Positions 1-43,832 of a DNA stretch of 64,000 bases are shown piece after piece. Positions within the stretch are counted from its first letter, which is position 1. Every line of letters starts with the position of its first letter. Under the pieces are notes generated by a model, which saw only the letters and a program-made list of their open reading frames with translations, was not told the DNA's origin and made no database searches. Origin of the DNA: an uncultured Actinomycetota bacterium (GTDB lineage Bacteria > Actinomycetota > Actinomycetes > JAHEKZ01). The stretch lies in assembly GCA_963743915.1 (NCBI GenBank), contig CAVURN010000005.1, positions 320,001 to 384,000 on the forward strand. The letters are read 5' to 3'. The translations under genes were made by a program, and so were the position numbers.

Positions 1-1031
1 GCTGCGCTCCCTGAGCGTAGGTCTCCCACCGAGTCGCGGAGTCGCACAGCTTGGTGGGTCCGCCCAGCCCACCGGTGGTCACGACGACGAAGAAGGAGCC
101 GTCCGGCGCCAGGTCGACGTCGTGCAGATACGAGTCGAAGAATCGGTTGCAGTCGCGGCTGCCGAACCGGGACGTGCGCCAGCCGTCCACGACGGCATGC
201 CGCCCTGAGGTGTCGAGCACCGCCACCTGCGTCCGCGTGCGCCCTCCGACTGCGGTGAAGTTCCCGATGGCGACCAGGCGGTCGCCCGCAGGGGTCACGT
301 CGATCTTCCGCACGGTGGTGACGCCACCCTGGTTGACCCCGGAGAACGGCAGGTCGACCGCTCGCGTCAGCCATCCAGTCGACGCGTTCAGCGTGGCCAG
401 GCCCCGGCGGGGCACGCCACCGGCCGACGTGAACGACCCCGCGACGTAGAGGCGGCTGCCGACAAGGCGGAGGTCATAGATCCGTCGGTCGAACGCCGGG
501 CTGCGGAAGGAACCGACCTTCGGGCCGTCGGCGAGGTCGAGCTGCTGCAGCCGACCTGGGCCGACCCCGTTGATCGTGCGGAAGTCGCCGCCGACGTACA
601 CCGACCGGCCGTCGCCCGACAGGGCCAGCGCGTCGACCCGCGGCGCCACCCCGGGGGCAGAGGCCAGCACGGGGACGAAGGCGTCGCTGACGGCCCCGGT
701 GGTCACATCGAAGGCGAACAGTCCCGTCCGCGGCAGCACGGGAGCGTCGACGCCGGACTCCTGCACCTTGCTGAACGTGCCCCCGACCACGACCAGGTCC
801 CCGACGCGGACGATCGCCTGGACGCGCCCGTCGAGCACCCGTGGTGTGTGGTCGAGCGGGTCGTCGCTTGCCAGCTGCTCGGCCGCGGCGGAGGCGCTGG
901 CCGGTGCGGTCACCGCGCTCATCGAGCGTCACGAGGGCTGCTGCGACCAGGGCCACTGCCCCGGCTCTGAGCCAGCGGCCACCCCTCGTCCTCGCCACCT
1001 GCGCTCCCCCACCCGTCGTCGGCGCACCCAC
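1..1031 (-). CDS. Secreted beta-propeller repeat protein of the type found N-terminal to PKD domains in actinobacteria; runs off the window; frameshift near 922
   Basis: Signal-peptide-like start (RWLRAGAVALVAAALVTL). After a one-base shift the frame stays open to the window edge: DHTPRVLDGRVQAIVRVGDLVVVGGTFSKV...VYVGGDFRTING...LYVAGSFTSAGG...LVAIGNFTAVGG, i.e. repeated blade motifs. Confidence 0.7.
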
Positions 1032-1269
1032 TCGGCGCGCACTGTTGCCTCGCCATTACAGAGCGTGCCGGGACGGTCGGGCGGCGACTGCGGTCGAAAG
1101 GGAACCATCGGCGGACGACCTACTTCGTACCGTCAACTCGTGGCTACGCAGCGTGATCTGCGGAGAACGCCGCCCGGTGACGCACCCACCCGGGTGACGG
1201 CGCTCCGGGCGACGTCGGGGTCTGCGCTCGCACCACGTACGCTGCCGGGGACTCGCCTGAAGGGACAGC

Positions 1270-2468
1270 ATGGAGACGCACCACCCCGGCCTCACCGACG
1301 GCCTTGCGCCGCTCTGGGAGCCCGGGCCGGTCGGCCCGACCCGCCCCTTCCTGGTGCTGCCCTCCGCCGACGACCCCCGCCTCGTGCTGCCGGCGGGGCG
1401 CGGACGGGCCGCCGCCACAGTCCTGCACGCGTTGCGGGACGAGTCGACGGCCAAGGCGCGCACCCTCTCGTGGGCCCTGCGCGGCGCTGCCCTGCTCCAC
1501 GTGCGCACCACCGAGCTGCCTGACCCGCCGCTCCTGGCGGCCGTCGCCAGACACCTGGCACCGGAGAGCGTCGCCGCCGACCTCGTGTACGGCGTCCACC
1601 TGGGCCCGCGTCGCGCGAACCGGAAGCCGGTCCTGGCCGTGGCCGGACGGGACGGTGCGCTCCTCGCCATCGTCAAGTGGGGCATGAACCCGCTCACCGA
1701 CCGGCTTGTCGCCCACGAGGCGACGGCGCTGCACCAGCTGACCTCCCTGCCCGCGCACTCGGGGGTGCAGGTCCCGAGACTCCTCGGTCAGGGGGATTTC
1801 GCCGGACACCCCTACGTCGTGCAGTCACCCGTGCCCACCAGCGGAGCGGGTCCGTGGTCGCTCGACCGCGCCATCGAAGCCCAGGTGGCAGTGGCGACGT
1901 CGGGCGGACAGGCGGATGCCGAGGACTACCTCACCCGCTTCGCCGCGGCGTGGCGGGACCGACCCACCACCTGCGACCCGGTGGACCGCGACGCCGCCCA
2001 GGCGTTCGGGGCGCTGGCGACGACCTGGCTCGGCCACGTCCGACAGTCCTCGCTCGGGCACGGCAGGTGGCACGGCGACTGGCGTAGGACCAACATGGCC
2101 CTCACCCGGGACGGCTGCTCGGTGTGGGACTGGGAGCGGTTCGACAGCGGCGCTCCCCTCGGGTACGACGCGCTGCACCTCTTCCTCACCGGCCGCGCCG
2201 GTTCGGTGCAGGACCTCACCACGCTGCCCGCGGACGTCTTCGCGAACGCCGCGCGCCTGCTCCGACCGTTCGGCGATCGAGAGCCGCGACGACGCCGAGC
2301 TGGTCACCTGCGGCTACCTGCTCGAGCTGGCCGGCCGGTACCTCGACGACGGTCAGTCGACCTCGGGCGCACGTCTGGGAGACAGTCGCCCACTGGCTGC
2401 TGCCCACCCTCACCAGCGTCCTGAAGGAACCCACCACCGGGCACGAACAAGGAGCGAACGAGCAGTGA
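1270..2468 (+). CDS. Aminoglycoside-phosphotransferase-like (APH/kinase fold) protein; frameshift near 2275
   Basis: RRANRKPVL...AIVKWG...LVAHEATAL, catalytic-loop-like HGDWRRTN and WDWE motifs; AGGGA upstream; the stop overlaps the next GTG. Confidence 0.7.
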
Positions 2469-3320
2469 GCAGTCTGCGGGGCAAGAGCAGAAGAGCGGCG
2501 CGAGCCGCGGCCGACCGGGTCGGCCGGCGGACGTCGTCGCGCCGGGTCCTGCCGACCATGCTCATCGTGGGCGGGCAACGGTGCGGCACGACCACGCTCT
2601 TCAAGGCGCTGCTCGAGCACCCGGGGTTCGTCGGGCCGACGCTCCGCAAGGGCGTGCACTACTTCGACCTCAATGCCGATCGACCCCTGGACTGGTACCG
2701 CAGCCACTTCCCCACCGAGTCCAGCGTCGAACAGGATCGCGCAGCGCCAGGGGCACTCCGTGGTCGTCGGCGAGTCGAGCCCGTACTACATGTGGCACCC
2801 GCTGGCGCCCGAGCGGATCGCCACGGCCCTGCCCGACGTGAAGGTCATCGCCCTGCTGCGTGACCCGGTGGCCCGCGCCTACTCCGCCCATGCCCACGAG
2901 CTCGCGCGCGGCTTCGAGACCGAACCGTTCGAGCGAGCACTCGAACTCGAGGAGGAGCGCCTGGCCGGCGAGGAGGAGCGCCTACGCAGCGGCGCGGTCA
3001 CGCGCAGCCTCGCGCACCAGCATCTCGCCTACGTCCGTCGGGGGCAGTACATCGACCAGCTCGAGCGTCTCGAGGCGGCCCTGGGCCGCGAACGCATCCT
3101 GGTCGTCGACAGCGTCGCCCTCTGGTCCTCGCCGGAGGAGCGCTGGCCCGAGGTCACCCGGTTTCTCGGCCTCCCGGACCACCCGGTGTCGATCGAGCGT
3201 CACAACGCCCGTTCGCGCTCTCCCCTGGACGACGCCCTCCGAGAACGTCTCGAGGCGCACTACGTGCCCTACGACGAGCGGCTGGCCGCCTGGTGGGGAC
3301 GCACCCCGAGCTGGCGGTGA
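2465..3320 (+). CDS. Sulfotransferase (Sulfotransfer_1, heparan-sulfate sulfotransferase-like); frameshift near 2730
   Basis: 5'-PSB loop IVGGQRCGTTTL, KGVHYFD, GESSPYY, 3'-PB motif LLRDPVARAYS. Confidence 0.85.
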
Positions 3321-3518
3321 CGGCTGCAGCGGACCGAGGAGACAGCGCGGTCTCTGACCGCTGCTGACGACCCACGACTACCGCACGTGCAGGACACCGG
3401 ACGTCCGGCAGGCGTCACCCGTTTGGCGGCACTTGTGCCAACACCGATCGGACCCCGCTACCTCCGGTGAGAATTGACCCACCGACCACCTCCCCTTCAC
3501 CGCGACCGAGGAGCATCC

Positions 3519-3992
3519 GTGCAGGCACTGTCCGACCTCGAAGGTCGCGTGCTGCTGGTCGGCTCCAGCGGTGGTCACCTCGCCCAGCTCCTCGCGCTGG
3601 CGCCGCTCTGGCCGCGGGAACGACGGCACTGGGTCACCTTCGACACCGCGGACGCAGTGTCCCAGCTGGTCGCCGAGAGCGTGACGTGGGCGTACCACCC
3701 CACCACCCGGAACGTGAGGAACCTGGCACGCAACACCGCGCTCGCGCGCCAGGTCCTCGACGCCGAACGACCCGACGTGATCGTCTCGACCGGAGCGGCC
3801 GTCGCGTATCCCTTCTTCCTGCTGGGCCGCGCCCGGGGGATCCCCACGGTGTACGTCGAGGTCTACGACCGGATCGACAGCCGCACCGTGACCGGGAGGC
3901 TCTGCCGTCCGCTGTCGACGCTCTTCTGCGTCCAGTGGGAGGAGCAGCAGCAGCTCTACCCGGGCTCGATCGTCGTGGGGCCGCTGCTGTGA
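3519..3992 (+). CDS. Alg14/PssD/Cps14F-like glycosyltransferase subunit
   Basis: VGSSGGHLAQL, DVIVSTGAAVA, VYVEVYDRI...TG, VQWEE motifs; GAGGAG RBS. Confidence 0.85.
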   Translation: MQALSDLEGRVLLVGSSGGHLAQLLALAPLWPRERRHWVTFDTADAVSQLVAESVTWAYHPTTRNVRNLARNTALARQVLDAERPDVIVSTGAAVAYPFFLLGRARGIPTVYVEVYDRIDSRTVTGRLCRPLSTLFCVQWEEQQQLYPGSIVVGPLL

Positions 3993-4470
3993 GCCGCATC
4001 CTCGTCACGGTGGGCACCGACTTCCACCCCTTCCAGCGCCTCGTCGACTGGGCCGACCAGTTCGCCGAGCAGCACCCCGAGCACGAGGTCTTCACGCAGT
4101 ACGGCTCAGCCCGTCCGCCTCGGCACGGCGAGCACTCCCGGCTGCTCGACCACGCCCAGCTGCAGCGCGAGATCGCCCGGGCCGACGTGGTGGTCTGTCA
4201 CGGAGGCCCGGCAACCATCACCGAGGTGCGGCGTGCCGGTCTCCGACCGGTCTGCGTCCCGCGCGACCCGGACCGCGGGGAGCACGTCGACGGACACCAG
4301 ATGCGTTTCGTGCGGCGCATCGAGCGAGGCCGGGATGGTCGCCGCATGCCTCGACGTCGACGACCTCGACGAGGCGGTCGCCGCCGAGCTGGCCCGGCCA
4401 CGCCGCGACCCGGGTCAGGCCGAGGACGTGGCGCCGGGCGTCCGGCGCATCCATGACCTCATCGCCGAGC
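3989..4470 (+). CDS. Alg13/PssE/Cps14G-like glycosyltransferase (GT28 C-terminal domain); frameshift near 4322; end uncertain, possibly fused to the next gene
   Basis: ILVTVGTDFHPFQRL, ADVVVCHGGPATI, VPRDPDRGEHVDGHQ; GTGA overlap with the upstream gene. Confidence 0.8.
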
Positions 4471-5438
4471 CTCACCGCGCAACCTTCGACCGACGGCGAC
4501 GACGACGACGCGCATCCGGGTCATCTACATCGGCGGCCAGGGACGGAGCGGCAGCACGCTTCTCGAGCGCGCGCTGGGTGAGCTGCCCGGCGTCCTCAGC
4601 GTCGGCGAGATGGTGCACCTGTGGGACCGCGGGCTGCGCGACGACCAGCTCTGCGGATGCGGGGAGCCCTTCCACACGTGCTCGTTCTGGCGGTCGGTGG
4701 GCGACGTGGCCTTCGGCGGCTGGGACGCCCTCGACGTCGATGAAGCGGTGTCGCTGCGCTACGCGGTCGACCGCAACCGCTACCTGCCCCTGCTCGCGCG
4801 TCCCGGCCTCTCCCGCCGCTACCGGGAGCGCCACGCCCGCTACGTCGCCAGGCTGGCTCAGCTGTACCGCGCCATCGCCGAGGTCTCCGGCTCACGCGTC
4901 ATCATCGACTCCAGCAAGCACGCCTCCTACGCGATGACGCTGTCCCAGGTGCCCGGCCTCGACCTGCGGCTGCTGCACGTGGTGCGTGACAGCCGTGCGG
5001 TGGCCCACGCGTGGAGCAAGGAGGTCGCCAGGCCGGAGGCGCTCGGGGTTCCGATGCCGATGTACGGACCGACCAAGACCGCCGTGCTGTGGGACGTGCA
5101 GAACACCTTGATCGAGCGACTCAAGCGTCGCCACCCTTACCTGCGGATCCGCTACGAGGACTTCGTCGAGGCGCCCAAGGACGTCCTGCTGGCAGCCGGA
5201 CGGTTCGCCGGGCTCGGGGACGAGGCCTCCACGCTCGACGTTCCTCGACGCGGACACCCTGCGGCTGACGCCCTCGCACACGGTCGCGGGGAACCCCATG
5301 CGCTTCCTCTCCGGAGAGGTGAGGATCAGGGCGGACCGGTCGTGGCGTTCTGACATGCCGACCGGCCGGCAGCGTCTGGTCAATGCACTGACGCTGCCCC
5401 TGCAGCGTCACTACGGCTACCGATCGGCAGACTCGTGA
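4453..5438 (+). CDS. Sulfotransferase (Sulfotransfer_3-like, with a Cys cluster); frameshifts near 4510 and 5245
   Basis: VIYIGGQGRSGSTLL, LCGCGEPFHTCSFW, IIDSSK, HVVRDSRAVAHAW, RIRYEDF, HTVAGNPMRF. Confidence 0.85.
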
Positions 5439-6370
5439 CCATGAGCCCCTTCCCCCGCGTCGACGTGGTGGTCCCGACCCGCGACCGCCCGGAGATGCTG
5501 CGGACCGCCATCACCGCGATCCTGGCGTCGGAGTACAAGGGCGACATCCGGGTCCTGGTCGTCTACGACCAGTCGTCCCCGGACTCGTCACTGGCGACGG
5601 AGCAGTCACTGGGCATCGGCGACCACCGAAGCGTCAGCGTGCTGTCGAACAACCGCACACCCGGGCTGGCCGGCGCCCGCAACACCGGGCTGCTGGCAGC
5701 GGACGCCGAGCTCGTCGGCTTCTGCGACGACGACGACACGTGGCTCCCGCACAAGCTGGCGGCGCAGGTGGACGCCCTCGCGGCGGAGCCGGACGCGGAG
5801 TTCGTCTGCTGCGGCATCGAGGTGCTCTACGACGGGGAGTCGCACCCTCGGGTGCTGGACCTGCGCCACGTCACCCTCACCGACCTGGTGCGTGACCGAC
5901 TCACCGAGCTCCACCCCTCCACCTTCCTCATGCGACGCGCGGCGGTCGTCGAGGGCTTCGGACTGGTCGAGGAGGAGATCCCCGGCAGTTTCGGTGAGGA
6001 CTACGAGCTGCTGCTCCGGGCAGCACGTCGGCACCCGATCCTCAACGTCCCCGAGGTCGGTGTCCAGGTCCTGTGGTCCAGCCGTTCCTACTTCACCGCG
6101 CGGTGGCAGACGATGCGCTCCGGTCTCACCTGGCTGCTCGAGCGCTACCCCGAGTTCGAGGACGTCCCCGCGGGCGAGGCCCGGATCGCCGGTCAGATCG
6201 CGTTCGCGGCAGCAGCGGACAAGGACCGGAAGCAGGGTGCTCGGTGGGCGTGGCGGGCCCTCCGCCGGCGCCCGGTGGAGCCGCGCGCGTACCTGGCGCT
6301 CGCCGTCGCCGGTGGGTTGTCTCCGCAGTGGGTTCTCCGACGCCTGCACTCCGTCGGCCGCGGGATCTAG
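5435..6370 (+). CDS. Glycosyltransferase family 2
   Basis: VVVPTRDRP, GLAGARNTG, FCDDDDTW (DxD), GEDYELLLR. Confidence 0.9.
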   Translation: MTMSPFPRVDVVVPTRDRPEMLRTAITAILASEYKGDIRVLVVYDQSSPDSSLATEQSLGIGDHRSVSVLSNNRTPGLAGARNTGLLAADAELVGFCDDDDTWLPHKLAAQVDALAAEPDAEFVCCGIEVLYDGESHPRVLDLRHVTLTDLVRDRLTELHPSTFLMRRAAVVEGFGLVEEEIPGSFGEDYELLLRAARRHPILNVPEVGVQVLWSSRSYFTARWQTMRSGLTWLLERYPEFEDVPAGEARIAGQIAFAAAADKDRKQGARWAWRALRRRPVEPRAYLALAVAGGLSPQWVLRRLHSVGRGI

Positions 6371-7284
6371 CGGTCGATGATGGTGCGCCACGCCTGCCGG
6401 GACGGCGCGTCCCGCAACCGGTAGTCGATGTTCGGCACCTGCGCATCCCAGTACGTGACGAACGCGGCGTTCCGCCGGTCGGTGTACCGGGCACACGCAT
6501 GCAGCCAGCGCGCACGTCGGGTGCCGTCGTCCCCCGGGAGCAGCCGGCTGGCCAGCTCGGCCACCCCGAACCTGTTCCCCAGTCGACGCGTCGTGCGGTA
6601 GGCGGGGCCCATGAGCTTCCGCGGCGCCATGTACTGAGGGGCCCCGCGTGGGCTGTAGCAGTCCCACCCCATCACGTCGATGAAGTCGCCGGGGTAGTAG
6701 GTGCGGACGGAGCGGTTCGAGGAGCGGGCCGTCCAGCACATCAGGATCAGGGTGGGGTGCAGCTGCGGGTTGTCCACGCGGCGGGCGATCGCGTTGATGT
6801 GCCGCCACGCCGCGCGGTACTGGGCTGCCGAGATCAGACCACGCTCGTGGTCGTCCTCCGGCTCGTGGAAGTACGACCAGAAGGTGGGGCGCTGCTTGGG
6901 CGCGTTCCGGAAGAAGGTCCGGAGCTCGTCGTCGACCGCGCCGCTGAGCACCCGGCCGGGCATCTCACGGAACGAGAGCACCACCGGGCGCCGAAACCCC
7001 TCGAGCAGTCGGTTGAAGGTGTCGCGGACGAAGGGCTCGTACACCCGGACGATGTCCATGCCCCCGTAACGATCGTCGGACTGCCGCACGGCGGTGCGCC
7101 AGTCGATCCCGTCGGACGGGACGCTGGCGCCGAACCGGGTCGACGATCCTCGGCGCTCCAAGCGTGTCCCGTCGGTCGAGGCCTCCGACTCCGTCGACGT
7201 GCTGACGATGAGCGGGACGAGGGCGGCGACGAAGGCCACCGCCAACAGGATCACGGGCAACGTTCGGCGTGCGTGGGAAGTCAC
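6367..7284 (-). CDS. Secreted GH26-like glycoside hydrolase
   Basis: Signal peptide; YFHEPEDD (acid/base), YRAAWRHI, YYPGDFIDVMGWDCY, FGVAELA (nucleophile). Paralog of 8778-10310. Confidence 0.65.
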   Translation of the reverse strand: MTSHARRTLPVILLAVAFVAALVPLIVSTSTESEASTDGTRLERRGSSTRFGASVPSDGIDWRTAVRQSDDRYGGMDIVRVYEPFVRDTFNRLLEGFRRPVVLSFREMPGRVLSGAVDDELRTFFRNAPKQRPTFWSYFHEPEDDHERGLISAAQYRAAWRHINAIARRVDNPQLHPTLILMCWTARSSNRSVRTYYPGDFIDVMGWDCYSPRGAPQYMAPRKLMGPAYRTTRRLGNRFGVAELASRLLPGDDGTRRARWLHACARYTDRRNAAFVTYWDAQVPNIDYRLRDAPSRQAWRTIIDR

Positions 7285-8777: not shown

Positions 8778-10310
8778 TCACCGGGCCAGGTGGCTGCCGT
8801 ACGTGGTCGTGACCTCGCGCCAGGCCTGCTTGGACGGCTCGTCGAGCAGGCGGTAGTCGCCCCCGGTGGCCACGGCGTCCCAGTAGCACACGAAGGCGGC
8901 GTCGCGTTCGAGCAGCCAGGATCCGATCGATCGCAGCCAGTCACCACGCTTGCTGCCCGTCGCGTCATCCACGCCGAGTCTGGCTCCTGTCTCGGCGACC
9001 CCGAAGGGGAGCCCGAGCTCGCGGGTCGCGGCGAGCGCCTTCCCGTACATGTCCTCAGGGTTGGCATAGGGCGACGTGGAGTGCGCGTAGCAGTCCCAGC
9101 CCATCGCCTCCACCACGTCAGCACCCGGGAAGAAGCTGCTGACGCTGCGGCCCGACTTCGGACTGGCCGTCCAGCACATCAGGATGACGGTGTTGTGCAG
9201 CTGCGGGTTGCCGGCCGCATCGGCGAGCCCCGCGATCCGTCGATAGGCGTCGCGCCACTGCTGCGCCGTGAAGTCCCCGCTCTCGACGTTGTCCTCGGGC
9301 TCGTGCCAGTACGACCACCAGATGTCACGGTCCCTGGGGGCGGTACGGAACCACTCGGCCAGGTAGGCGTCGTGCCGCCCGGCGAGCACATCGGACGGGT
9401 TGGCCTTGAACGAGACGACGACGGGACCGCCCACCTCACCGGCACGGCCGGGCCACCGGCTCGGCAGGCCCGGGTAGAAGACGCGCACGACCTCCATGCC
9501 GCCGTAGGCCGCGTTGGAGTCGGCCAGCGCCTGGGACCACGAGCGTCCCTCCTGGTCGACGCTGGCCCCGAACAAGGTGCTGCCGTCCGCCGGCCCCTCG
9601 GTCGGGCTGTTCGTCGGGCTCGGCTGCGGCTCAGGGGCGCTGGTCGTGGGGGCGGGCTGGCTGGGGGTGGGGGACTCGGAGGGGGTCGGCGACGGCGACG
9701 AACTCGTCCCCTTGACCGGGTGCACCCGCACGCGGTCCACCTTCAGACCACTCAGCGAACGGAAGGCGGTCAAGGAGACCTGGAGAGTGCTCCGGGCTTC
9801 GCTCGGCTCAGCGAGGAAGGCGACCTGCCGCCAGTTGTCGCTTCCCGCGGTGAAGCGTTCGCCGGTCACCGAGGCGACCCGGTCGCCCTTCCACTCGTAG
9901 AGGCGGAAGGCACCTTGCACCGGGGCTCCGGTGGCGCGGACCCACGCGGACACCTGGTACTGCACCCCGGGGGCGGAGGTCGGGGCCGTCGCGCGCAGGT
10001 CGCGCAAGGTGGCCGAGGCCGCGCGCAGGTGGAGGACCGCCGCCCGTCGACTGCCCCAGACGCCACCGTCGGTGATGCCCAGCACGTCCCCGCTGCCGCT
10101 CGTGACGTCCCAGTCGGTGAAGCCGTGCTTGAACCCGCCGTTGTGCACGAGGTTGGGCCCGAGCACCCGGCGTCCCAGGGAGTCGGGGTCGCCGACCGGC
10201 GCCGCCGAGGAGGGGATCACCACCGCCGCCACACCCAGACCTGCGGTCAGCGCGAGGGCGGTCGTGACGGCGGCGACGCGGGACGGGGTGCTCGGACTGC
10301 GGTTGCTCAT
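8778..10310 (-). CDS. Secreted protein: CBM4/9-like domain, Pro/Ser/Thr linker and GH26-like catalytic domain
   Basis: Signal peptide; NLVHNGGFKHGFTDW...YQVSAWVRA; PSPTPSESPTPS linker; YWHEPED, MGWDCY, FGVAETG. Confidence 0.7.
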   Translation of the reverse strand: MSNRSPSTPSRVAAVTTALALTAGLGVAAVVIPSSAAPVGDPDSLGRRVLGPNLVHNGGFKHGFTDWDVTSGSGDVLGITDGGVWGSRRAAVLHLRAASATLRDLRATAPTSAPGVQYQVSAWVRATGAPVQGAFRLYEWKGDRVASVTGERFTAGSDNWRQVAFLAEPSEARSTLQVSLTAFRSLSGLKVDRVRVHPVKGTSSSPSPTPSESPTPSQPAPTTSAPEPQPSPTNSPTEGPADGSTLFGASVDQEGRSWSQALADSNAAYGGMEVVRVFYPGLPSRWPGRAGEVGGPVVVSFKANPSDVLAGRHDAYLAEWFRTAPRDRDIWWSYWHEPEDNVESGDFTAQQWRDAYRRIAGLADAAGNPQLHNTVILMCWTASPKSGRSVSSFFPGADVVEAMGWDCYAHSTSPYANPEDMYGKALAATRELGLPFGVAETGARLGVDDATGSKRGDWLRSIGSWLLERDAAFVCYWDAVATGGDYRLLDEPSKQAWREVTTTYGSHLAR

Positions 10311-16523: not shown

Positions 16524-17234
16524 TCAGTCAGCCGCGATGTAGCGTCCGTCGCGCAGGACAGGGACCACGTCGTCGACATCCACCTGCTCGGCCAGTCGCA
16601 CGTCATCGGGGAAGCCCCAGTCGATCAGCTCGCGCCCGGACGGCACGCCCGCCAGCGAGTCCCGGTCGCGGAACGCGGCGACCGCTGCGCGCGCCTCCGG
16701 AGCCAGCTGCACGTTCGGGTCGAGGGCGAGCAGCCGCTCGGCGATCGCGCCGGAACCGACGTGGTCCTCGTAACAGACGCGGAGCGCACCATCGGGCCAC
16801 TGCTCGCCGGCAGGCACGAGACCGACGGTGCGGAACCGTCCCTGCAGCCAGCGGGCCACGGCTGACGCGTTCCGGAGCGAACCGGCCACCACGGTGAGGC
16901 CGGACATCAGGGCAGCGTGGGAGATCACCGAGCCGTTGGCCGACGGCATGATCAGCCGTTCACCGTCCTGCACGTCGAGCAGGCTGGCGGGTGACAGGGT
17001 CCGTCCCTCGCGCATGTTGCGCCCCCGCACCAGGGTGGCACCGATCGCCCGGGCGAGCTGTTCGGCGCGCTCGTGGCCACTGTGCGGCCACACCGCCGCG
17101 CCACGCGCGACGGCCACGGCGACGGATGTGGAGAACGACAGCACGTCGACGATCACGACGCACTCGCACGTCTCCGAGAGCAGGCGGAGTCCGCGCGGCC
17201 CCCACTCCAGCTGCACCACTGTGGGGTCGACCAT
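16524..17234 (-). CDS. 2-phosphosulfolactate phosphatase (ComB) family protein
   Basis: EWGPRG, VVIVDVLSFSTSV, LSPASL, PSANGS, GSLRNASAVA, PAGEQW, EDHVGSGAI. Confidence 0.85.
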   Translation of the reverse strand: MVDPTVVQLEWGPRGLRLLSETCECVVIVDVLSFSTSVAVAVARGAAVWPHSGHERAEQLARAIGATLVRGRNMREGRTLSPASLLDVQDGERLIMPSANGSVISHAALMSGLTVVAGSLRNASAVARWLQGRFRTVGLVPAGEQWPDGALRVCYEDHVGSGAIAERLLALDPNVQLAPEARAAVAAFRDRDSLAGVPSGRELIDWGFPDDVRLAEQVDVDDVVPVLRDGRYIAAD

Positions 17235-18139
17235 CAGTCGACCACCCGCGCTCCGGCCACCGGACCCACAGCAGACACGACCGTCCGGCAGGTGCCCGAC
17301 GAGGTGAGGGCGACGGCGAGGTCGAGGGCGTGCTCCTCGTCGCGGGCCAGGAAGGCGCAGGTGGGGCCCGATCCGGAGACCAGGGCACCCAGGGCGCCGT
17401 ACTCCTCCCCGACGTCGAGGGTCATCGCCAGACCGGGGCGCAGCGACACCGCCGCGCGCTGCAGCTCGTTGTGCAGGACACCGCCCAAGGACACGGCGTT
17501 TCCCGACCGCAGCGCGGCCATCACCCGGTCCGAGACGCGCGGCTCCGGCAGCACCGAACCCGCCCGCATGCGGTCGAGCTCGGCGTAGACGTCCGGGGTC
17601 GAGAGCCCGCCGTCGGCGAACGCGAACACCCAGTGGAAATGACCCCGCGCCAGCACGGGTGTGAGCTTCTCGCCGCGCCCGAGCCCCATCGCGGTGTGTC
17701 CCACCAGCCCGAACGGCACGTCCGAACCGACGGAGGCGGCAAGGTCGACCAGCACCTCCCGCTCGAGGTGCGCCTCCCAGAGCCGGTCGAGGGCGAGCAG
17801 CGCTCCGGCCGCGTCGGCACTGCCTCCGGCCATGCCGGCGGCCACGGGGATCGCCTTGTGGATGTGCAGGTGCGCTCTGGGCTCGACGCCGAGGTGCTCG
17901 GCGAGCGCCCGGGCAGCGACCAGGGCCAGGTTCTCGTCATCGACGGGAACCGTGTCAGCGCCCTCGCCCTCGACGCTGACGGTGAGATGGTCGCCGGGGA
18001 GGGCAGTGACGTCGTCGAAGAGCGAGACTGCCTGAAAGACCGTGGCCAGGTCGTGGTAGCCGTCCTTGCGCGGAGTGCCGACGATCAGCTCGAGGTTCAC
18101 CTTGGCCGGGACCCGCACGGTGACCGGACTCACCCACAC
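17234..18139 (-). CDS. ispE: 4-diphosphocytidyl-2-C-methyl-D-erythritol kinase
   Basis: VPAKVNL, GYHDLATVFQAVS, KAIPVAAGMAGGSADAA, GSDVPF, VSGSGPT. Confidence 0.96.
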   Translation of the reverse strand: MWVSPVTVRVPAKVNLELIVGTPRKDGYHDLATVFQAVSLFDDVTALPGDHLTVSVEGEGADTVPVDDENLALVAARALAEHLGVEPRAHLHIHKAIPVAAGMAGGSADAAGALLALDRLWEAHLEREVLVDLAASVGSDVPFGLVGHTAMGLGRGEKLTPVLARGHFHWVFAFADGGLSTPDVYAELDRMRAGSVLPEPRVSDRVMAALRSGNAVSLGGVLHNELQRAAVSLRPGLAMTLDVGEEYGALGALVSGSGPTCAFLARDEEHALDLAVALTSSGTCRTVVSAVGPVAGARVVD

Positions 18140-29443: not shown

Positions 29444-31051
29444 GTGACGGCGACAGCGGGCCTGGGAGCGGTCCACCCCACCGCTGTCCCTGAGTCGCGA
29501 GAGGTCGCCGAGCACCGCGCGCAGGTACGTCGTCGGCTGCTGCCGCCGGGCCCCACCGATCGCGTCGCCGGCTGGGTCGGTGCGCTGGCGGTCACGGTGC
29601 TCGGCGGCATCCTGCGCTTCTGGGAGCTCGGCAAGCCTCGCGCCTTCATCTTCGACGAGACGTACTACGCAAAGGACGCGTACGGCCTGCTCCAGCACGG
29701 CTACGAGCAGGACTTCGTCGAGAAGGCCGACGAGCGGATCCTGCAGGGGAACCTCAACGTGTTCTCCGACACCGCGTCGTTCGTCGTCCATCCGCCACTG
29801 GGCAAGTGGATCATCGCGAGCGGCGAGCAGCTGTTCGGCATGAACCCGTTCGGCTGGCGCGTTGCGGTCGCGGTGCTGGGCACTCTCAGTGTCCTGCTCC
29901 TGGCCCGGCTCGTGCGACGCGTCACCGGATCCACTGTGCTCGGGACCATCGCCGGCTTCCTCCTGGCGATCGACGGGCTGCATCTCGTCATGAGCCGCTC
30001 CGCACTCCTCGACCTGCCCGTGTCGTTCTTCGTGCTTGCGGCGTTCGGCGCCCTCGTCATGGACCGCGAGCAGGGGCGCCGCCGCGCGGCCGAACGACTG
30101 GACCGGTTCGAGACCAGCAACCTCGGCCCGGGCCTGGGGTTCCGCCCCTGGCGCATCGCGGCGGGTGTGCTGCTCGGCTGCGCCCTCGGCACCAAGTGGA
30201 ACGCCATCTTCTTCATCGCCACCTTCGGTCTCCTGACGGTGTGGTGGGACGTGTCGGCGCGTCGAGTGGCCGGTGCTCGGTCCCCGTGGCTCGGCGCACT
30301 GCGACATGACGCGCTGCCAGCGTTCCTCTCCATCGTCCCGCCCGCCCTGGTCACGTACGTCGTCACCTGGACGGGCTGGCTCGTCACCGATGGCGGCTAC
30401 TACCGCACGTGGGCCGACGACAACCCCTCGAGCACATTCGGCTGGATCCCTGGCCCGCTGCGCTCCCTGTGGCACTACCACCATGAGGCCTTCGCCTTTC
30501 ACACCGGGCTGTCCAGCGACCACGCGTACGAGTCGCATCCGTGGAGCTGGCTGGTGCAGGGCCGACCGGTGTCCTTCTACTACAAGGAGTACACCGACGG
30601 GCAGCTCGGCTGCACGGTGGAGAAGTGCGCTCGCGAGGTTCTGGCGGTCGGGAACCCCGTGCTCTGGTGGAGTGTCGCACTCGCCCTCCTGGTGATGGTG
30701 TGGCTCGTGATCAGCAGACGCGACTGGCGGGCAGGTGCCGTGCTCGCGGCGGTCGCCGCCGGCTGGCTGCCGTGGTTCTGGTACGCCGACCACAACGAGC
30801 GCACCATGTTCTCGTTCTACGCCGTGGCGTTCGTTCCCTTCCTCGTGATGGCCGTCACCCTGTGCCTCGGGTTCGTCCTCGGCCCCAAGGACGCGTCGCC
30901 CGCGCGGCGCACGGCGGGCGCCACCGCCGTGGGCGCCTACCTGCTCCTCGCTCTGCTCGCAGCAGTGGTCCTGACGCCGCTCTGGCTCGGCCAGGTGATC
31001 CCCTACGACAGCTGGCTGGACCGTCTGCTCGGCATCCAGTCCTGGGTGTGA
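29444..31051 (+). CDS. pmt: Polyprenyl-phosphate-mannose protein O-mannosyltransferase
   Basis: IFDETYYAKDA, VVHPPLGKW, SRSALLD, GTKWN, HAYESHPWSW, GNPVLWW; next to rsmI as in mycobacteria. Confidence 0.93.
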   Translation: MTATAGLGAVHPTAVPESREVAEHRAQVRRRLLPPGPTDRVAGWVGALAVTVLGGILRFWELGKPRAFIFDETYYAKDAYGLLQHGYEQDFVEKADERILQGNLNVFSDTASFVVHPPLGKWIIASGEQLFGMNPFGWRVAVAVLGTLSVLLLARLVRRVTGSTVLGTIAGFLLAIDGLHLVMSRSALLDLPVSFFVLAAFGALVMDREQGRRRAAERLDRFETSNLGPGLGFRPWRIAAGVLLGCALGTKWNAIFFIATFGLLTVWWDVSARRVAGARSPWLGALRHDALPAFLSIVPPALVTYVVTWTGWLVTDGGYYRTWADDNPSSTFGWIPGPLRSLWHYHHEAFAFHTGLSSDHAYESHPWSWLVQGRPVSFYYKEYTDGQLGCTVEKCAREVLAVGNPVLWWSVALALLVMVWLVISRRDWRAGAVLAAVAAGWLPWFWYADHNERTMFSFYAVAFVPFLVMAVTLCLGFVLGPKDASPARRTAGATAVGAYLLLALLAAVVLTPLWLGQVIPYDSWLDRLLGIQSWV

Positions 31052-36655: not shown

Positions 36656-38740
36656 GCGGATGACTCCTCAGGGGCGAGTCCAGTGACCTCGCGCCGGAAG
36701 GGGACGCTGTCGCCCGTGCGCGGCGGGCCGTCCAGCTCTTCGGCGTACTTGTGTCCTTCATAGACGGCTGCGGCGATCGTGGCGGGGGCGAAGGCGTCGC
36801 CGATCGCACGGACACTCAGCAGCCCGGCGTCCGTCCACTCACCGCTGCGAGCGTTGAGGCCGGTGAACAGCTCGTCGCGCGGCAGGCGAGCCGTCACCAT
36901 CACGACCGCGTCGGCGGGCACCGCCTCCTCGCGTCCGGTGTACGCGCAGGCCAGGGTGACCTCCCCGTCCCCCATTGCGGTCAGCGTTCGCGCCGTTCGC
37001 ACCTGCACGCCGGCGTTCAGCACCCGCTCCTGGATCCGGATGATCTCCAGCGTGTTGTTCGTCCAGCTCGACACCTGTGCCGCCGGCGTCACCAGCTGGA
37101 CGTCGTACCCCTCCGCCGCGAGCAGCTCGGACAGGACACCCCCCATGTAGTAGTGGTCGTCGTCGAAGACCACGACACGTGGGCCGGAAGGACGCTCCCC
37201 CGACATCAGGTCGTCCGGGGTCAGCACCGGCAGTGATCCCGCGGTGGGGACCGGGGTCAGGTGCCAGCGACCGATGCCGTCGGCGCGCCATCTGGCGCCC
37301 GTCGCCACCACCACGTGCTCGAAGCCGCTGCCGATGATGTCGTCGACCTCCATGGGTGACTCCATGGCGACCTCGACGTTCTTCAGGCCACGGATCTGCT
37401 GCTCGCGGTGGTCGAGCACCCGCACCCACGCGGCCAGACCGGGCAGGCGGGACTCGCGCCAGACGCGACCACCGAGCTGGCGCGTCGCCTCGGTCAGGGT
37501 GACGTCGTACCCGCGTTGGCCCAGCGACTTCGCCGCCTCCAGCCCGGAAGGACCGGCTCCGACGACAAGCACCGAGGTCTCCGATCCGCGCACTTTGATC
37601 CGCTCGGGGTGCCACCCGCGCCGCCACTCCTCACCCATCGTCGGGTTCTGCGTGCACCTGATCGGAGACATCGTGAAGTCGCCGGACACACAGATGTTGC
37701 AGCCGATGCACTCGCGGATGTCCTCGAGCCTTCCCTCCTCGATCTTGCGCGGCAGGAAGGGGTCGGCGATCGAGGGTCTGGCAGCGCCGATCAGGTCCAG
37801 GATCCCCTGACGCACCTGGCGCACCATGGTGTCCGGCGAGGTGAAGCGACCGACGCCGACGACGGGCCGGGTGGTCAGCTGCTTCAAGCCCTTGACGTAC
37901 TCCTCCTGCGCGCCCTCGGGCCCGAAGCGCGACGTGACGGAGTCGTCCTCCCAGGACCCGAGCACGAAGTCCCAAAGGTCCGGGTGCTCAGCGAGCTCGG
38001 CGACGACCTCCTCGATCGCCGCGCGGTCGATCCCGCCGTCACCGAGCAGCTCGTCGACGGTGATCCGGCAGGCGACCGCCGCCTTGCCGTCACACGCCTC
38101 CCGGGTGTCCTCGAGGATCTCGCGCAGCAGCCTCATGCGGTTCAGGGTGCTGCCGCCGTACTCGTCGGTCCGCTGGTTGTAGCGCGGACTCAGGAAGTGG
38201 TGGATGCCTCCCAGCGCGTGGCCGGCATACACGTACACGATGTCGTAGCCGGCCTCGATCGCACGCCCGGCCGCCGCCTTGTGCCAGCGGCGCAGGTCGA
38301 CGATGTCCTGCTTGGTCATGGCCCTCGCCTGGACCGGGTCCAACGACCACGTGGCGACCGGCAGGTGTGCCGGACCCATCGGCGCCTCGCGGCTGTAGAG
38401 GTTCGGACCGTTCATGCCGTTGTAGGTCAGCTCGAGGCCGGCCAGAGCCCCGTGCTCGTGCACGCGATCGGCCATCCGGGCCAGGGCCGGGATGTCCTGG
38501 TCGTCCCAGAGCCGCAGCTCGATGAACGGGCGTGATGTCGGACGAGTAGTGGAACTCGACCTGCTCGGTGCACACCACACCCCAGCCGCCCTCGGCCTTG
38601 ACGCCGCGCATGGTCGCGAGCGCCGTCACGTCCCGGTACCCCATGCCGTTGCAGTGCGGAACCTGGAAGAAGCGGTTGGGGGCAGTGACCGGACCGATCG
38701 GGACCGGTTCGAAGAGGACGTCGTAGCGGGGGTCACGCAT
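36652..38740 (-). CDS. Histamine dehydrogenase-like flavo-iron-sulfur enzyme (TMADH/HADH family); frameshift near 38530
   Basis: NRFFQVPHCNGMGYRD (6-S-cysteinyl-FMN Cys), TEQVE, PFIELRLWDDQD, GSWEDDSVTSRF, RECIGCNICVSGDFTMSPIRCTQNP (4Fe-4S), VGAGPSGLEAA. As I recall it, closely colinear with Nocardioides simplex histamine dehydrogenase. Confidence 0.85.
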
Positions 38741-39929
38741 CGCTGCTCCTCGGCGGGACGGCCAGCAGTCGAGCCCGCTCGTCTGCATCACTTGCCACGT
38801 CGACGACGGTCAACGCCAACGCGGTCGCCGCATCGAGCACGGCGCGGTCGGCTGCGGGCGTCGCGGCGGCGGCGGCGAACTCCGGTTGGTGGTTCACCGC
38901 AGGAAGGGAGTCGATCCCGATGTACGGGTGGATCGCCGGCACCACCTGGGACACGTTGCCCATGTCGGTGGACGCCCGGTTCATCCGGGTCGCAGGGTCG
39001 TCGGGACTGGCGAACCGGCGTCCGAGGCCCTCGGCGTTGGCGACATACCTGGCCAGCACCGAGGTGTCGTTGCGGAAGTCGGCGTACGGCTGGCCCTCGG
39101 ACGTGATCGTGAGCCGGCAGTCGGTGGCCAATGCCCCGGCCTCGAAGCACTTGGCCGCGCGAGCCTCGACCTCACGCATCTGCGACATCGTGGTGCCTCG
39201 TACGTACCAGTGACCCTGTGTGCGGTCGGGGATCACGTTCGGCGCCTCTCCGCCGTGCGTCACGATGCCGTGCACCCGCGAGTCGGACGGGAGCTGCTGG
39301 CGCAGCAGGGCCAACGCCACCTGCGCGATCGTGAAGGCGTCCGCAGCGTTGACACCGAGGTCGGGGTAGGCAGCCGCATGCGCGGCCTTGCCCTCGTAGG
39401 TGACGCGCGAGGTGCGAGACGGCATACGCCTCTGCGCTGTGCGACGTCGACCGGCCCGGGGTGGGCCATCAGCGCCAGGTGCGCATCGTCGAAGGCGCCG
39501 CGGTCGAGCAGCTCGAGCTTGCCGCCGGCGCCCTCTTCGGCCGGCGTCCCGAGCAGCTTCACGCGGATGCCGAGGTCGTCGGCGACCGCTCCGAGCGCCA
39601 GCGCGGTACCGACCGACGACGCAGCGATCACGTTGTGACCGCAGGCATGACCGAGGCCGGGGAGCGCGTCGTACTCGGCGCAGACGACCACGGTCAGCGG
39701 GTCCGTCTCCGCGCACGGCCTCGACCGCAGTGGCGACCCCGTAGGCCTGCGGCGTCACGTCGAAGCCCGCCGACCGCCATGGCGTCGGCCACCCATGCCG
39801 CTGGCGCGCACCTCTTCCCACGCCACCTCGGGGTGGGCGTGGATCCGGTGGCTGAGGTCGATCAGCGCGTCGGCGTCTCCGCTGCGACGACGCGACGTCG
39901 CCTCGTCGCGCACCTCGGTCAGCCGTCAC
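38733..39929 (-). CDS. M20D amidohydrolase (ACY1L2/PM20D2-like); several frameshifts
   Basis: IHAHPEVAWEE, AEYDALPGLGHACGHNVI, GTPAEEG, GKAAHAA, ASTDMGNVS, NHQPEF. Confidence 0.85.
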   Translation of the reverse strand: MTADRGARRGDVASSQRRRRRADRPQPPDPRPPRGGVGRGARQRHGWPTPWRSAGFDVTPQAYGVATAVEAVRGDGPADRGRLRRVRRAPRPRSCLRSQRDRCVVGRYRAGARSGRRRPRHPREAARDAGRRGRRRQARAARPRRLRRCAPGADGPPRAGRRRTAQRRMPSRTSRVTYEGKAAHAAAYPDLGVNAADAFTIAQVALALLRQQLPSDSRVHGIVTHGGEAPNVIPDRTQGHWYVRGTTMSQMREVEARAAKCFEAGALATDCRLTITSEGQPYADFRNDTSVLARYVANAEGLGRRFASPDDPATRMNRASTDMGNVSQVVPAIHPYIGIDSLPAVNHQPEFAAAAATPAADRAVLDAATALALTVVDVASDADERARLLAVPPRSSDA

Positions 39930-40624
39930 CGGGCGTCTCCCGGTACGCCGTAGCTCGGCGAGCTCTCGGGGTCGAGCGCCCGCTACCAGGTAGGCCTGCT
40001 CCTGGGGCTGCCAGACGCGCCAGAGCCGCGCGAGCTCGCCACCGGCTCGTCGTGCCAGTCGACCCGGAGATCGGTCACCGGCCAGGTGTAGACCGGGTCC
40101 GGATCGGCGACCAGCAGACCGGCCGAGTGCACGGGGCCGGCTTCGCCCCCGGCGGCGAGGGCGGCGGCGAGCCCCGCGATCAGCCGCTCTCCGAGCGGTG
40201 CCGATGGGTCGAGCCTGCGAAGGCATCGGCCGCGGCGTCCAGCACCGACGGCGACGACAGCAGGTTGCCGGCAACGACGACCCCGGCGCGCGACGACCTG
40301 GCCGTGCACGCCCAGTGCCTGCTCGACCGGTCCAGGCCGCGGTCGTCGCCGTTGCGGTCGACGGCGGTCAGCTGACGCCAGGCGATGACGGCGCGTGCGG
40401 CTGGCGTCCGACGACGTCGGCCACCGCGGCGTCCGGCTCGGCCCCCGCTCGAGGGCGTCCAGCATCGTCGGTCCCAGACGCGGGTCGGTGACGTTCTGCG
40501 TGGTGACGGCGCCGACGCCACCGCGGACCCAGGCACAGCGGGCCGCGACTGCCGGTGACGACGACGTGATCGCCACACCCATGGCGCCGGTCCTGGCGCA
40601 GTGGCCGCCCACGCTGAACGTCAT
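39926..40624 (-). CDS. DUF1028 Ntn-hydrolase-like protein (HinG-like); frameshifts
   Basis: MTFSV, SSSPAVAARC, VTTQNVTDPRLG, AGNLL, AGGEAGPVHSAG, DLRVDW, SYGVPGD. Confidence 0.85.
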
Positions 40625-41044
40625 GACGCCACCCGACTCGGACGAGCACCGCGGTCACGTCGATCTCGACCAGCCACTCCGGCCGGGCAAGCGCGGTGAC
40701 GACCAGACCGGTCGACACCGGGTAGACACCCTTCAGCCATCGGCCCATCACCCGGTAGACCGGCTCGCGGATAGCGGATGTCGGTGAGGTAGACGACGAC
40801 CTTCACGACGTCGTCCAGACTCGAGCCGCACTCGTCGAGCAGCATCGCCATGTTCGCCATGGCCTTCTCGGCCTGCCTCGACGTCACCGATCGCAACCGA
40901 CTCGCGGGTGTCGAGGTCCTGCCGATCTGGCCGCGCAGGTAGACCGTGCCGCCGGCGACCACGGCCTGGCACAGGTCGTTGTCGAGGTTCTGCTCCGGGT
41001 AGGTGTCGCGGGTGTTGAAGGGGCGGATCGCGTCGGTGGCTCAT
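40621..41044 (-). CDS. RidA/YjgF family enamine/imine deaminase (HinL-like); frameshifts
   Basis: PFNTRDTYPEQNLDNDLCQAVVA, VYLRGQIG, GVYPVSTGLVVTALARPEWLVEID. Confidence 0.85.
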
Positions 41045-42354
41045 GCGCGATCCCCCGAGCTGCACCGCCTGGACCCGTCGCCACACTGGTCGCGAGCTCG
41101 CTGCCGCGGTAGGCCAGGTAGCCGCGCTGCGATCGCGATGTGGTCGGCGACGAACCTGGCGTCGTGCCAGACGCCCCAGATGAAGGACGAGCCGCGCCGC
41201 GACAGCCACGGCAGCCCGAGGAAGTAGATCCCGGGCTCGGTCGACACACCGCGCTGGTGCCTCGGCCTGCCGGTCTCGTCGAAGGCGTCGACCTGCAGCC
41301 AGCCGAAGTCGACGGCGAAGCCGGTCGCCCAGACGATCGACGTGACGCCCGGCGCTCGCGAGGTCGAGCTCGAGGATCGGGTCGGTCACGCACGCCGGAG
41401 CCGGGCCCAGGATGCGCGCGCCTCGGCTCCTCGGGCAGGTCGAGCCCGTTGCGCGCGACGTAGGCGTCGGCCTCGTCGAGCACCGAGAGGTAGTTGGCGT
41501 CGCCGTGGGCGATGTTGTCGGCCAGGTCCGGCGCGAAGGTGCATCACACCGTCCTCGAACGAGCTCGTCCGGCCGACGAGCATCATGCCGCGCGCGGCGA
41601 GGTCGCGGAAGTCGACGGTCTGGCCGCCATGGGCGCCGCTGACCGCGATGGTGACGTGCTCCTTGCCCTGCGGCGGGGTCTCCTCGTCCCACTTGCCGAG
41701 CACGCCGAGCCACCAGACGAAGTCGCGCCCGCGATAGCGCCGCGGCGGACGGTCGTGCGGACCGACCGACAGGTAGACGCGCCGCCCGGCGCGCAGCAGC
41801 TCGTCGGCGATCTGCACCCCCGACGATCCGGCCCCGACGACGAGCACCGCGCCCTCGGGCAGCTGGCTCGGGGTTGCGGTAGGCGCTGGAGTGGATCTGC
41901 TGAGGCCCGGCGTCGTCGGGCACGATCGCAGGAATGACCGGGCGCTGGAACGGTCCGGTCGCGGCCACGACGAAGCGCGCGTCGATGGCCCCGTCCGAGG
42001 TCTCGACGCGGAAGCCCGGCCGGCCGGCGTTCCGCTGCGACCGACGTCACCTCGACGCCGCAGCGGATCGGTGCGGCGATCTTCTCCGCGTAGGCGACGA
42101 AGTAGTCGGCGACCTGCTCCTTGGGAGCGAACGCGTCCGGGCTCGACGTCGGGGAACTCCAGGCCGGGGAAACGGTCGTGCCAGGCCGGCCCGTTGGCGA
42201 CCAGCGAGTCCCACCGCCCGGACCGCCAGCGCTCGGCGATGCGGTCCCGCTCGAGGACGAGGTGCGGCACGCCGCACCGGCTCAGGTGCTCGCTCATCGC
42301 CACGCCGGCCTGCCCCGCGCCGACCACCACGGCATCGACCACTTCGTCCGCCAT
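41041..42354 (-). CDS. Flavin-containing monooxygenase (HinF-like; candidate imidazole-acetate monooxygenase); several frameshifts
   Basis: VVGAGQAGVAMSEHL, RWDSLVANGPAWHDRFP, VGAGSSGVQIADEL, PPRRYRGRDFVWWLG, GLPWLSRRGSSFIWGVWHDA. Confidence 0.85.
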
Positions 42355-42483
42355 CTCGGCACTCCCTGGGTGAGGCTCCGTCGTCCTGGCTGCCTGGCGC
42401 TCTCTGCGCACCTCAGGCCGCTGTCTCCGGCATCCTGGTCGGTCGGATACCCCCTGTCCAACAGATGTTCTCGGGGACTGGCT

Positions 42484-42496
42484 TCGGCTTTACCGA
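42484..42496. promoter_or_regulatory. Candidate LysR recognition box (T-N11-A)
   Basis: TCGGCTTTACCGA with TCGG/CCGA dyad, about 130 bp upstream of the monooxygenase start. Confidence 0.5.
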
Positions 42497-42557
42497 TGTA
42501 GAGGCGGAGGCGGACGCAGGGGTGCGGAGATCACGGAGGAAGGATCACGCGGTTGGG

Positions 42558-42631
42558 TGGAGCTGAGGGGATTTGAACCCCTGACCCCCTCGTTGCGAAC
42601 GAGGTGCGCTACCGGACTGCGCCACAGCCCC
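42558..42631 (-). tRNA. tRNA-Ala (anticodon CGC)
   Basis: Reverse complement GGGGCTGTGGCGCAGTCCGGTAGCGCACCTCGTTCGCAACGAGGGGGTCAGGGGTTCAAATCCCCTCAGCTCCA; G3:U70 pair; TATCCT -10 box upstream. Confidence 0.95.
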
Positions 42632-42705
42632 TGGCTGTCCACCCACGAGGGGGGACGGCAGGACCGGATGAGGATAGCAACGGAGCGTCCCGCCGCCCGA
42701 ATCGG

Positions 42706-43699: not shown

Positions 43700-43832
43700 G
43701 GGACATCACGGTACGTGCGGGTCCGTTCACTTCTCGGTAACGCGGCCGGTGTGTCGGACCCTGGGTGTACGACGCAGAAGGTCGGGCGCAACGAGACCTG
43801 CCGGACGCACACTCGGCGCAGGGAGACCGAGG

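Follow-up and report, generated by a model that had tools for sequence, protein, structure and literature searches.

The 64-kb window analysed here (the whole stretch, positions 320,001 to 384,000 of contig CAVURN010000005.1 from an uncultured Actinomycetota bacterium) carries at 1270..7284 a locus that resembles the wps-1 cluster of Actinoplanes missouriensis (AMIS_7280-7380), described by Tezuka and Ohnishi in 2026 (PMC13390465). The region has a G+C content of about 71% and no long non-coding part, and Pfam, NCBIfam and frame analysis located all of the coding regions named in the original prediction at about the expected places. Five genes lie on the forward strand. The first encodes a WpsI-like kinase with a predicted APH/choline-kinase fold (1270..2468; 398 amino acids [aa] if intact), and the second a WpsH-like sulfotransferase, ST1 (2465..3320). 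After a gap comes an intact gene for a 157-aa PssD/Cps14F/Alg14-like protein, the putative acceptor-binding half of a split GT-B glycosyltransferase (3519..3992). The fourth gene (3989..5438) joins a PssE/Alg13-like domain to a WpsB-like sulfotransferase, ST2, and the fifth (5435..6370), also intact, encodes a WpsA-like GT2 glycosyltransferase (Pfam Glycos_transf_2, E=1.7e-20) for which hydropathy predicted no transmembrane segment. The kinase, ST1 and 3989..5438 genes are broken frames as assembled, i.e., three of the five operon genes are interrupted. Related loci were collected by scanning GTDB species genomes with an alignment of the kinase, which gave at least 562 confirmed matches; the best 80 were kept, and counts out of 80 refer to these loci, which were chosen via the kinase and are mostly from Micromonosporaceae. 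Loci of at least 20 kb (n=66) are referred to as full-length.

The fourth gene had been taken in the original prediction for two, an Alg13-like glycosyltransferase and a second sulfotransferase, and is instead a single gene for a fused protein of 481 aa, as in the homologue P0241 (PF04101 plus PF13469). The PssE/Alg13-like donor-binding domain occupies about residues 1–160 and ST2 about residues 173–481. The structure model of the fusion (predicted local distance difference test [pLDDT] score of 91) comprised a GT-B half and a sulfotransferase, with a linker of low confidence between them (162–170), and no transmembrane segment was predicted. ST2 had 237 longer relatives, and a PssE-like N-terminus preceded ST2 in 118 of 120 among the matches listed. 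At the ten loci with pssD, pssE and ST2 were fused in seven and separate in two (both Micromonospora), and one was truncated; a separate ST2 gene starting at ATG 4453 was ruled out by P0241 and the seven fused loci. Other natural fusions also tie pathway enzymes together, namely kinase-ST1 (P0373) and ST2-GT2 (P0351); along with Wzz-kinase (P0474) and tandem-kinase (P0361) fusions, these are one-offs that may each be a sequencing join. No description of a PssE-sulfotransferase fusion was found in a narrow literature search, in which subscription journals were mostly not covered. Within ST2, a His/Cys cluster (H209, C221, C223 and C230 of P0241; window about 4610–4690) was invariant in 60/60 aligned fusions and is a possible metal site.

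PssD and PssE form a textbook split pair, and the proposed Alg14/Alg13-like pair stood up, with adjacent PssD-like and PssE-like halves above their Pfam cut-offs (33.7 bits versus 27 for the Alg14-like half and 44.3 versus 22 for the GT28_C half). The Pfam Alg14 and GT28_C matches and the NCBIfam similarity to PssD, PssE and WelK are likenesses to the Rhizobium PssDE, Cps14FG and WelK proteins. The window differs from these in scoring under the NCBIfam cut-offs (107 versus 110 for PssD, NF041549, and 62 versus 120 for PssE, the latter on a frameshift-cut fragment) and in having a sulfotransferase domain on its PssE half. Enzymes of the PssDE and GT26 families both transfer the second sugar onto a lipid-linked monosaccharide, as described in PMC5748678 and PMC13463779.

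The prediction of two unrelated sulfotransferases held in that both domains are present and not detectably alike, and failed in that the second is not a separate gene. ST1 matches Pfam Sulfotransfer_1/3 and, in PDB sequence searches, 3rnl, 1nst, NDST1 and 3-OST; the intact orthologue in locus L007 gave E=8e-17 for 3rnl and E=5e-10 for 1nst. With its QRCGTT and RDPVARAYS motifs, ST1 thus appears to be heparan N-/3-O-sulfotransferase-like, a likeness that does not fix the acceptor. ST2 resembles the CurM/olefin-synthase and tyrosylprotein sulfotransferases. The idea that ST1 and ST2 are paralogues was rejected, their pairwise similarity not being significant (E=0.10). A third or fourth sulfotransferase was seen in L039 and L063 (Micromonospora), L056 (Blastococcus) and L042.

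For the kinase, the label APH-like was borne out by the fold model and the catalytic residues despite a missing family match. No Pfam or NCBIfam match was found for the window frame, nor any in Pfam for the homologue P0001; the kinase of L013 scored 21.9 against the Pfam APH cut-off of 23.2, and PF01636 is annotated on some close homologues. A first search gave 225 relatives among 8000 candidates scored, and a profile search gave 1733 representatives at E<1e-30 among 1.84 billion. RANRKPV, K136, E150, WHGD..N and WDWER were invariant in 52 aligned kinases. The model (pLDDT 91) matched APH, fructosamine-3-kinase (FN3K) and choline kinases at Z 14–15.5, with no one family foremost and a root-mean-square deviation of 3.5–4.4 over 254–289 residues, while Rio/Bud32 kinases gave Z under 10; a PDB sequence search with the kinase profile yielded nothing significant (best E=0.17). 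The Lys, Glu, HGD..N and DWE catalytic set is common to the window kinase and the APH-fold enzymes. The differences are that identity is 7–19%, that the window kinase adds an N-terminal part (about residues 24–85) and the invariant basic RANRKPV, and that kinases of its type are fixed in a glycan operon with no pointer to antibiotic resistance.

The clustering of these genes, claimed in the original prediction, is beyond chance. Among the kinase loci, ST1 was present in 80/80, ST2 in 63–64/80, GT2 in 61/80 (at 41–72% identity) and pssD in 10/80. ST1 directly followed the kinase in 79/80 loci, wzy directly preceded the kinase in 77 of the 78 with room, and wzx directly followed ST1 in 72/74. 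All of the full-length loci (66/66) had wzz, wzy and wzx inside the operon. A Sat-CysC gene for 3'-phosphoadenosine 5'-phosphosulfate (PAPS) synthesis lay within 10 kb in 58/80 loci and in none of the ten closest. While pssD and GT26 (54/80) were never in the same locus, PssDE standing where wps-1 has GT26, six full-length loci had neither, and five of these also lacked ST2 and GT2 within range. In an ST2 tree the GT26 loci largely grouped together. No priming transferase was found among 55 distinct family representatives scanned across the loci, a scan that most singleton genes fell outside, nor was one seen in the window. A DUF3048 gene preceded wzy in L039, L063, L042, L055 and L066. A plasmid collection gave a single weak match, in an 11.85-Mb Nonomuraea record.

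The closest loci (L001, L005, L006, L007, L009 and L010) are from metagenome-assembled genomes (MAGs) of uncultured Actinomycetes, one labelled Ca. Nanopelagicales, and have the order propeller, wzz, wzy, kinase, ST1, wzx, pssD, pssE-ST2, GT2. In L054, from Actinoplanes, the order is Sat-CysC, Wzz, Wzy, kinase, ST1, Wzx, methyltransferase, GH26, DUF4262, GT26, ST2, GT2, DeoR, GalT, which is the published wps-1 order. The wps-1 cluster consists of genes for GT2, two sulfotransferases, GT26, DUF4262, GH26, methyltransferase, Wzx, kinase, Wzy and Wzz. Its neighbours are Sat-CysC, a transcriptional regulator gene and a uridylyltransferase gene, and the gene list in PMC13390465 has no priming transferase. 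As reported there, sporangium formation depends on wps-1: sporangia were squashed in the wpsA, C, G, H, I, J and K knockouts, deletion of wpsA, wpsH or wpsI had a phenotype like deletion of the whole cluster, and loss of wpsB reduced spore release about tenfold.

The window shares with wps-1 the GT2 (WpsA), two sulfotransferases of different families (WpsB and WpsH), the kinase (WpsI) and a GH26-like gene, and in both, the kinase gene is directly before the heparan-type ST1 and ST2 directly before GT2. The window proteins are about 30–60% identical to those of Actinoplanes loci of the published order, with ST2 at 44–51% and GT2 at 44–50%. The window differs in having PssD plus PssE, the latter fused to ST2, instead of the GT26 WpsC; in lacking the WpsF methyltransferase, WpsD and an adjacent Sat-CysC; in that its GH26-like genes belong to another, secreted family; in the deletion of WpsG, J and K (Wzx, Wzy and Wzz); and in that its nearest loci are from uncultured MAGs, the reported sporangium role being that in A. 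missouriensis. By these comparisons the locus is a variant of the wps-1 cluster type, one departing from it in Wzx/Wzy/Wzz, GT26 and the methyltransferase. The synechan xss cluster of Synechocystis PCC 6803 (PMC8205485), compared by description, is likewise a Wzx/Wzy-type cluster with two sulfotransferases of distinct subfamilies; it differs in having eight glycosyltransferases and a proven sulfated product, and no APH-type kinase is mentioned in the passages at hand. Excerpts of PMC11641403 and PMC11766843 describe sulfated capsules of marine Vibrio and Cobetia, and PMC12691653 concerns a separate imp cluster.

The window order is that of the closest loci minus wzz, wzy and wzx. It had been suggested that flippase and polymerase genes may lie to the left of the window; in the relatives they lie between the propeller gene and the kinase and between ST1 and pssD. 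Two separate clean deletions are present at these expected sites. Deletion 1, of wzz and wzy (about 3 kb), is marked by 1040..1269 (+), an upstream region and ribosome site homologous, by DNA alignment with L001, L005, L006, L007 and L010, to those before wzz in the relatives. The kinase starts at the old wzz start, with GACTCG..AAGGGACAGC ATG GAG in the window and GACTCG..AAGGGGACAGAC GTG GAA in L007. Deletion 2, of wzx (about 1.45 kb), is marked by the ST1-pssD gap at 3321..3518 (+), which keeps the GGCGTCACCC element of the relatives' pssD upstream region. Because kinases 73–97% identical to that of the window share its N-terminus (MET/MKT/MRT-HHPGL), the sequences suggest that the export genes were lost before this strain arose. 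The window and its close relatives have conserved non-coding elements in common at 1056–1068 and 1144–1156 (TTACAGAGCGTG and CTACGCAGCGTGA) and at about 3409–3422 (GGCGTCACCC), which are probably regulator or sigma sites. A BldD-like box, in a pattern that we assumed, was not enriched upstream of the operon (21/72 promoters with at most one mismatch, versus a shuffled mean of 23.75). No consensus for this box was found in PMC12871210.

The surface-glycan interpretation of the original prediction is kept as regards a glycan pathway that has two unrelated sulfotransferases, a kinase and a lipid-linked intermediate: the same gene set is wps-1, for which a sulfated Wzx/Wzy polysaccharide is predicted, with wzz, wzy and wzx in every full-length relative. 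What falls away is the placing of export genes to the left. With modest confidence we favour the reading that the operon builds a lipid-linked repeat unit that is sulfated and probably phosphorylated, and whose export relies on machinery encoded elsewhere. The operon would then be the cytoplasmic enzyme half of a wps-1-type pathway, all of whose chemical steps we infer. A priming phosphoglycosyl transferase encoded elsewhere would load sugar 1 on a polyprenyl phosphate carrier, and PssD would dock on the PssE domain of the fusion and add sugar 2, the function established for the family. ST2, tethered to PssE, would sulfate the unit with PAPS made elsewhere, as the fusion suggests. GT2 would add a further sugar and ST1 a second kind of sulfate, and the kinase, judging from its fold and tight linkage, may phosphorylate a hydroxyl of the unit or of a precursor. 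The product would be a unit of some three sugars on polyprenyl-PP. With wzz, wzy and wzx deleted from the operon, flipping and polymerisation would be carried out by relocated genes or by another Wzx/Wzy cluster, and the secreted GH26-like enzymes may trim or release the polymer.

A number of points weigh against this reading. A tblastn search with all called locus genes found no homologue of wzx, wzy, wzz, GT26, the methyltransferase or Sat-CysC in the 64 kb, and Pfam searches of 67 other coding segments beyond 13 kb found no export or PAPS gene. Export in trans is thus an assumption of this reading, and many flippases are selective. ST1 has Arg in the 5'-PAPS loop where 1nst and 3rnl have Lys, and among solved structures those nearest to ST2 belong to enzymes whose substrates are polyketides and protein tyrosines. 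The mutual exclusion of PssDE and GT26 amounts to about 1–2 independent changes when traced on the ST2 tree, which has 29 rows (28 selected loci and the window), and the 80 loci, as the best of at least 562, are kinase-selected and Micromonosporaceae-heavy. The relative-rate tests, in which no gene changed faster along the window's branch, were anchored on the window sequence, a bias in the window's favour. Orthology to wps-1 runs via loci of the same order such as L054 and not via direct comparison with the A. missouriensis proteins. The sulfated polysaccharide of wps-1 is itself a prediction, whose verification its authors describe as pending (PMC13390465, in part).

In an alternative reading, the pathway has been repurposed without a polymerase and makes a short sulfated, phosphorylated oligosaccharide, which either remains on its lipid or is transferred to an acceptor on a protein or the wall. 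The two clean deletions took exactly the three membrane assembly genes and no soluble operon enzyme; the kinase start at the old wzz start, with an N-terminus common to kinases 73–97% identical, suggests an old, tolerated loss; and decay was not seen. On the other hand, an unflipped lipid-linked unit would trap the carrier lipid, as discussed in PMC13390465, and the four Wzx/Wzy clusters of A. missouriensis reported in the same paper make spare machinery plausible. The retention of two secreted GH26-like genes and a propeller gene fits a polymer outside the cell, and the view is limited to 64 kb, beyond which a relocated set would go unseen. A polymerase-free pathway, with a sulfoglycolipid-like product that is not polymerised, seems unlikely to us. 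If it did exist, a doubly sulfated and phosphorylated oligosaccharide made in this way would represent a Wzx/Wzy-independent pathway and a new class of actinobacterial sulfoglycoconjugate.

The interrupted frames raised the question of whether the locus is a decaying remnant, dead since the export genes were lost, with frameshifts that are real mutations. Frameshift-aware alignment of the window to intact relatives placed seven single extra bases in 1270–5438, near 2275 and 2381 in the kinase gene, near 2732 in ST1, and near 4322, 4467, 4510 and 5237 in the fusion. In keeping with a remnant, the adjacent pth, L25, prs and glmU genes have none, and the export genes are absent from the window. 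However, every frameshift is one extra base, and a codon model called 56 frame changes along the window, part of them gene junctions, with the densest calls at 40–47 kb. When the extra bases were skipped, 386/398 residues were identical to P0001 and 466/481 to P0241. Further, intact proteins 97% identical to those of the window exist and represent clusters of 16 and 15 member sequences, and no rate acceleration was seen. We consider decay distinctly improbable. Given that all seven are single extra bases, that frame changes also occur in housekeeping genes, and that intact 97% identical relatives exist, the breaks are most likely assembly errors; true pseudogenes are disfavoured by the window-wide frame-change calls and the intact close homologues, and the remaining enzymes of the operon show, as far as sequence can tell, no sign of decay. 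At 38500–47500 dense apparent frameshifts split moeA, moaC, a nucleotidyltransferase gene and oxidoreductase genes, and gene calls there are unreliable.

A further alternative concerns the kinase only and is compatible with a lipid-linked repeat unit exported in trans: the kinase might be a protein kinase that regulates a Wzc-like co-polymerase, and not a sugar kinase. PMC13390465 labels WpsI as having a protein kinase-like domain. The Wzz of the cluster has a BY-kinase-like C-terminal domain (BceF, E=5e-14) without a Walker A GK[ST] in 67/67 copies, and a single Wzz-kinase fusion, P0474, is known. Fructosamine-3-kinases, among the top fold matches, act on glycated proteins. Yet the window retains the kinase though wzz is gone, small-molecule kinases make up most of the top fold matches (Z 14–15.5, with Rio/Bud32 under 10), and a kinase-ST1 fusion, P0373, was also found. 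A regulatory protein kinase is thus doubtful, and the keeping of the kinase after Wzz loss argues for the glycan as its substrate. The Wzz-family genes (e.g., L020:6775-8532), being Wzc-like with a BY-kinase-type domain and no Walker A motif, likely encode pseudokinases. Choline-phosphate decoration was set aside, as no cytidylyltransferase or LicD-like gene recurred among the scanned families. A WbdD-like methyl-phosphate cap, a familiar model, was inapplicable, the methyltransferase (54/80 loci) being absent from the window.

A role for the sulfotransferases and kinase in modifying a small molecule or a secreted glycoside, and not a surface glycan, is very improbable. ST2's likeness to the CurM/olefin-synthase sulfotransferases would fit such a role, as would an actinomycete oligosaccharide antibiotic sulfated on fucose (PMC13291958, in part); but wzz, wzy and wzx accompany these genes in 66/66 full-length relatives, PssDE and GT26 act on lipid-linked sugars (PMC5748678 and PMC13463779, in part), and no scaffold-building gene was seen nearby among the family representatives of the loci or the 67 window segments. 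That the missing genes are an artefact of the window's assembly is scarcely credible: the assembly is error-prone and, among the 80 relatives with enough flanking sequence, none lacks the three genes, but both gaps coincide with gene borders, the DNA at the junctions is a diverged homologue of the relatives' regulatory regions, and the independent proteins P0001, P0002 and P0006 open with the same METHHPGL.

The view that such glycans are poorly characterised in actinobacteria is apt for the chemistry; the cluster type has already been described and knocked out (PMC13390465, in part). The same paper raises actinomycete sulfated polysaccharides as an open question, and its authors found the sporangium matrix too scarce for chemistry. 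The cluster type itself being published, what this locus adds, in a form open to testing, is the fusion, the glycosyltransferase swap and the missing export trio. GTDB species genomes gave at least 562 matches to the cluster type, and the 80 examined include Micromonospora, Blastococcus and uncultured lineages; from this spread, its role probably extends beyond sporangia, and there may be producers that are easier to work with. The PssDE/GT26 swap is a clue to the step performed by WpsC. The fusion, with no predicted transmembrane segment, would allow coupled glycosylation and sulfation to be tested with two proteins, and bacterial heparan-type sulfotransferases are of interest for making glycosaminoglycan-like polymers.

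Downstream of the operon, GH26a (6367..7284, -) is a convergent gene for a secreted or anchored GH26-like hydrolase with one N-terminal hydrophobic segment. The GH26 label given to it earlier is weak by Pfam (E=0.016; 15 bits versus a cut-off of 20.2), and no relevant PDB sequence match was found; in its favour, the HEP and GVAE motifs, which we take to be catalytic, are present. GH26a occurs in 7/80 loci and is 27–32% identical to WpsE-type proteins, from which it clusters apart; L039 and L063 hold both types. Among the closest loci, GH26a follows GT2 in five, and the order runs on to pth, L25 and GH26b in four. In the window the paralogue GH26b (8778..10310, -), also secreted, lies beyond pth and L25 and before prs, and has GH26-like motifs, a weak CBM_4_9-like domain (Pfam E=0.023) and a Pro/Ser/Thr linker. 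Its position is the same in L005, L006, L007 and L010, and it is probably accessory to the same system. The proposed link to glmU is weak: the pth/L25 neighbourhood occurs in 5/80 loci, most loci lying beside Sat-CysC and DeoR/GalT. A functional tie was rejected on this rarity as probably positional, and by gene order glmU's proximity is probably incidental.

Upstream, outside 1270..7284, lies the 5' part of a divergent gene for a secreted beta-propeller protein, truncated by the window edge (1..998, -; DUF5122, E=2e-6; 58–64% identity to relatives). One extra base near 925, in a column without that base in the relatives, appears to split the signal peptide from the remainder. The gene is present in 12/80 loci; the relatives' proteins are about 930 aa with PKD domains (PKD seen in L007), and the L063 propeller has malectin domains. 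To the left of the propeller gene, the closest relatives have small genes and mfd, and in L006 a Core-2/I-branching (GT14-like) gene (2606-3583, -) adjoins it. Elsewhere in the window, a protein O-mannosyltransferase (PMT) gene (29537..31048, +), of a kind ordinary in actinobacteria, adjoins rsmI, and a 2-phosphosulfolactate phosphatase-like gene (16533..17237, -) lies beside GHMP kinase and rRNA dimethylase genes.

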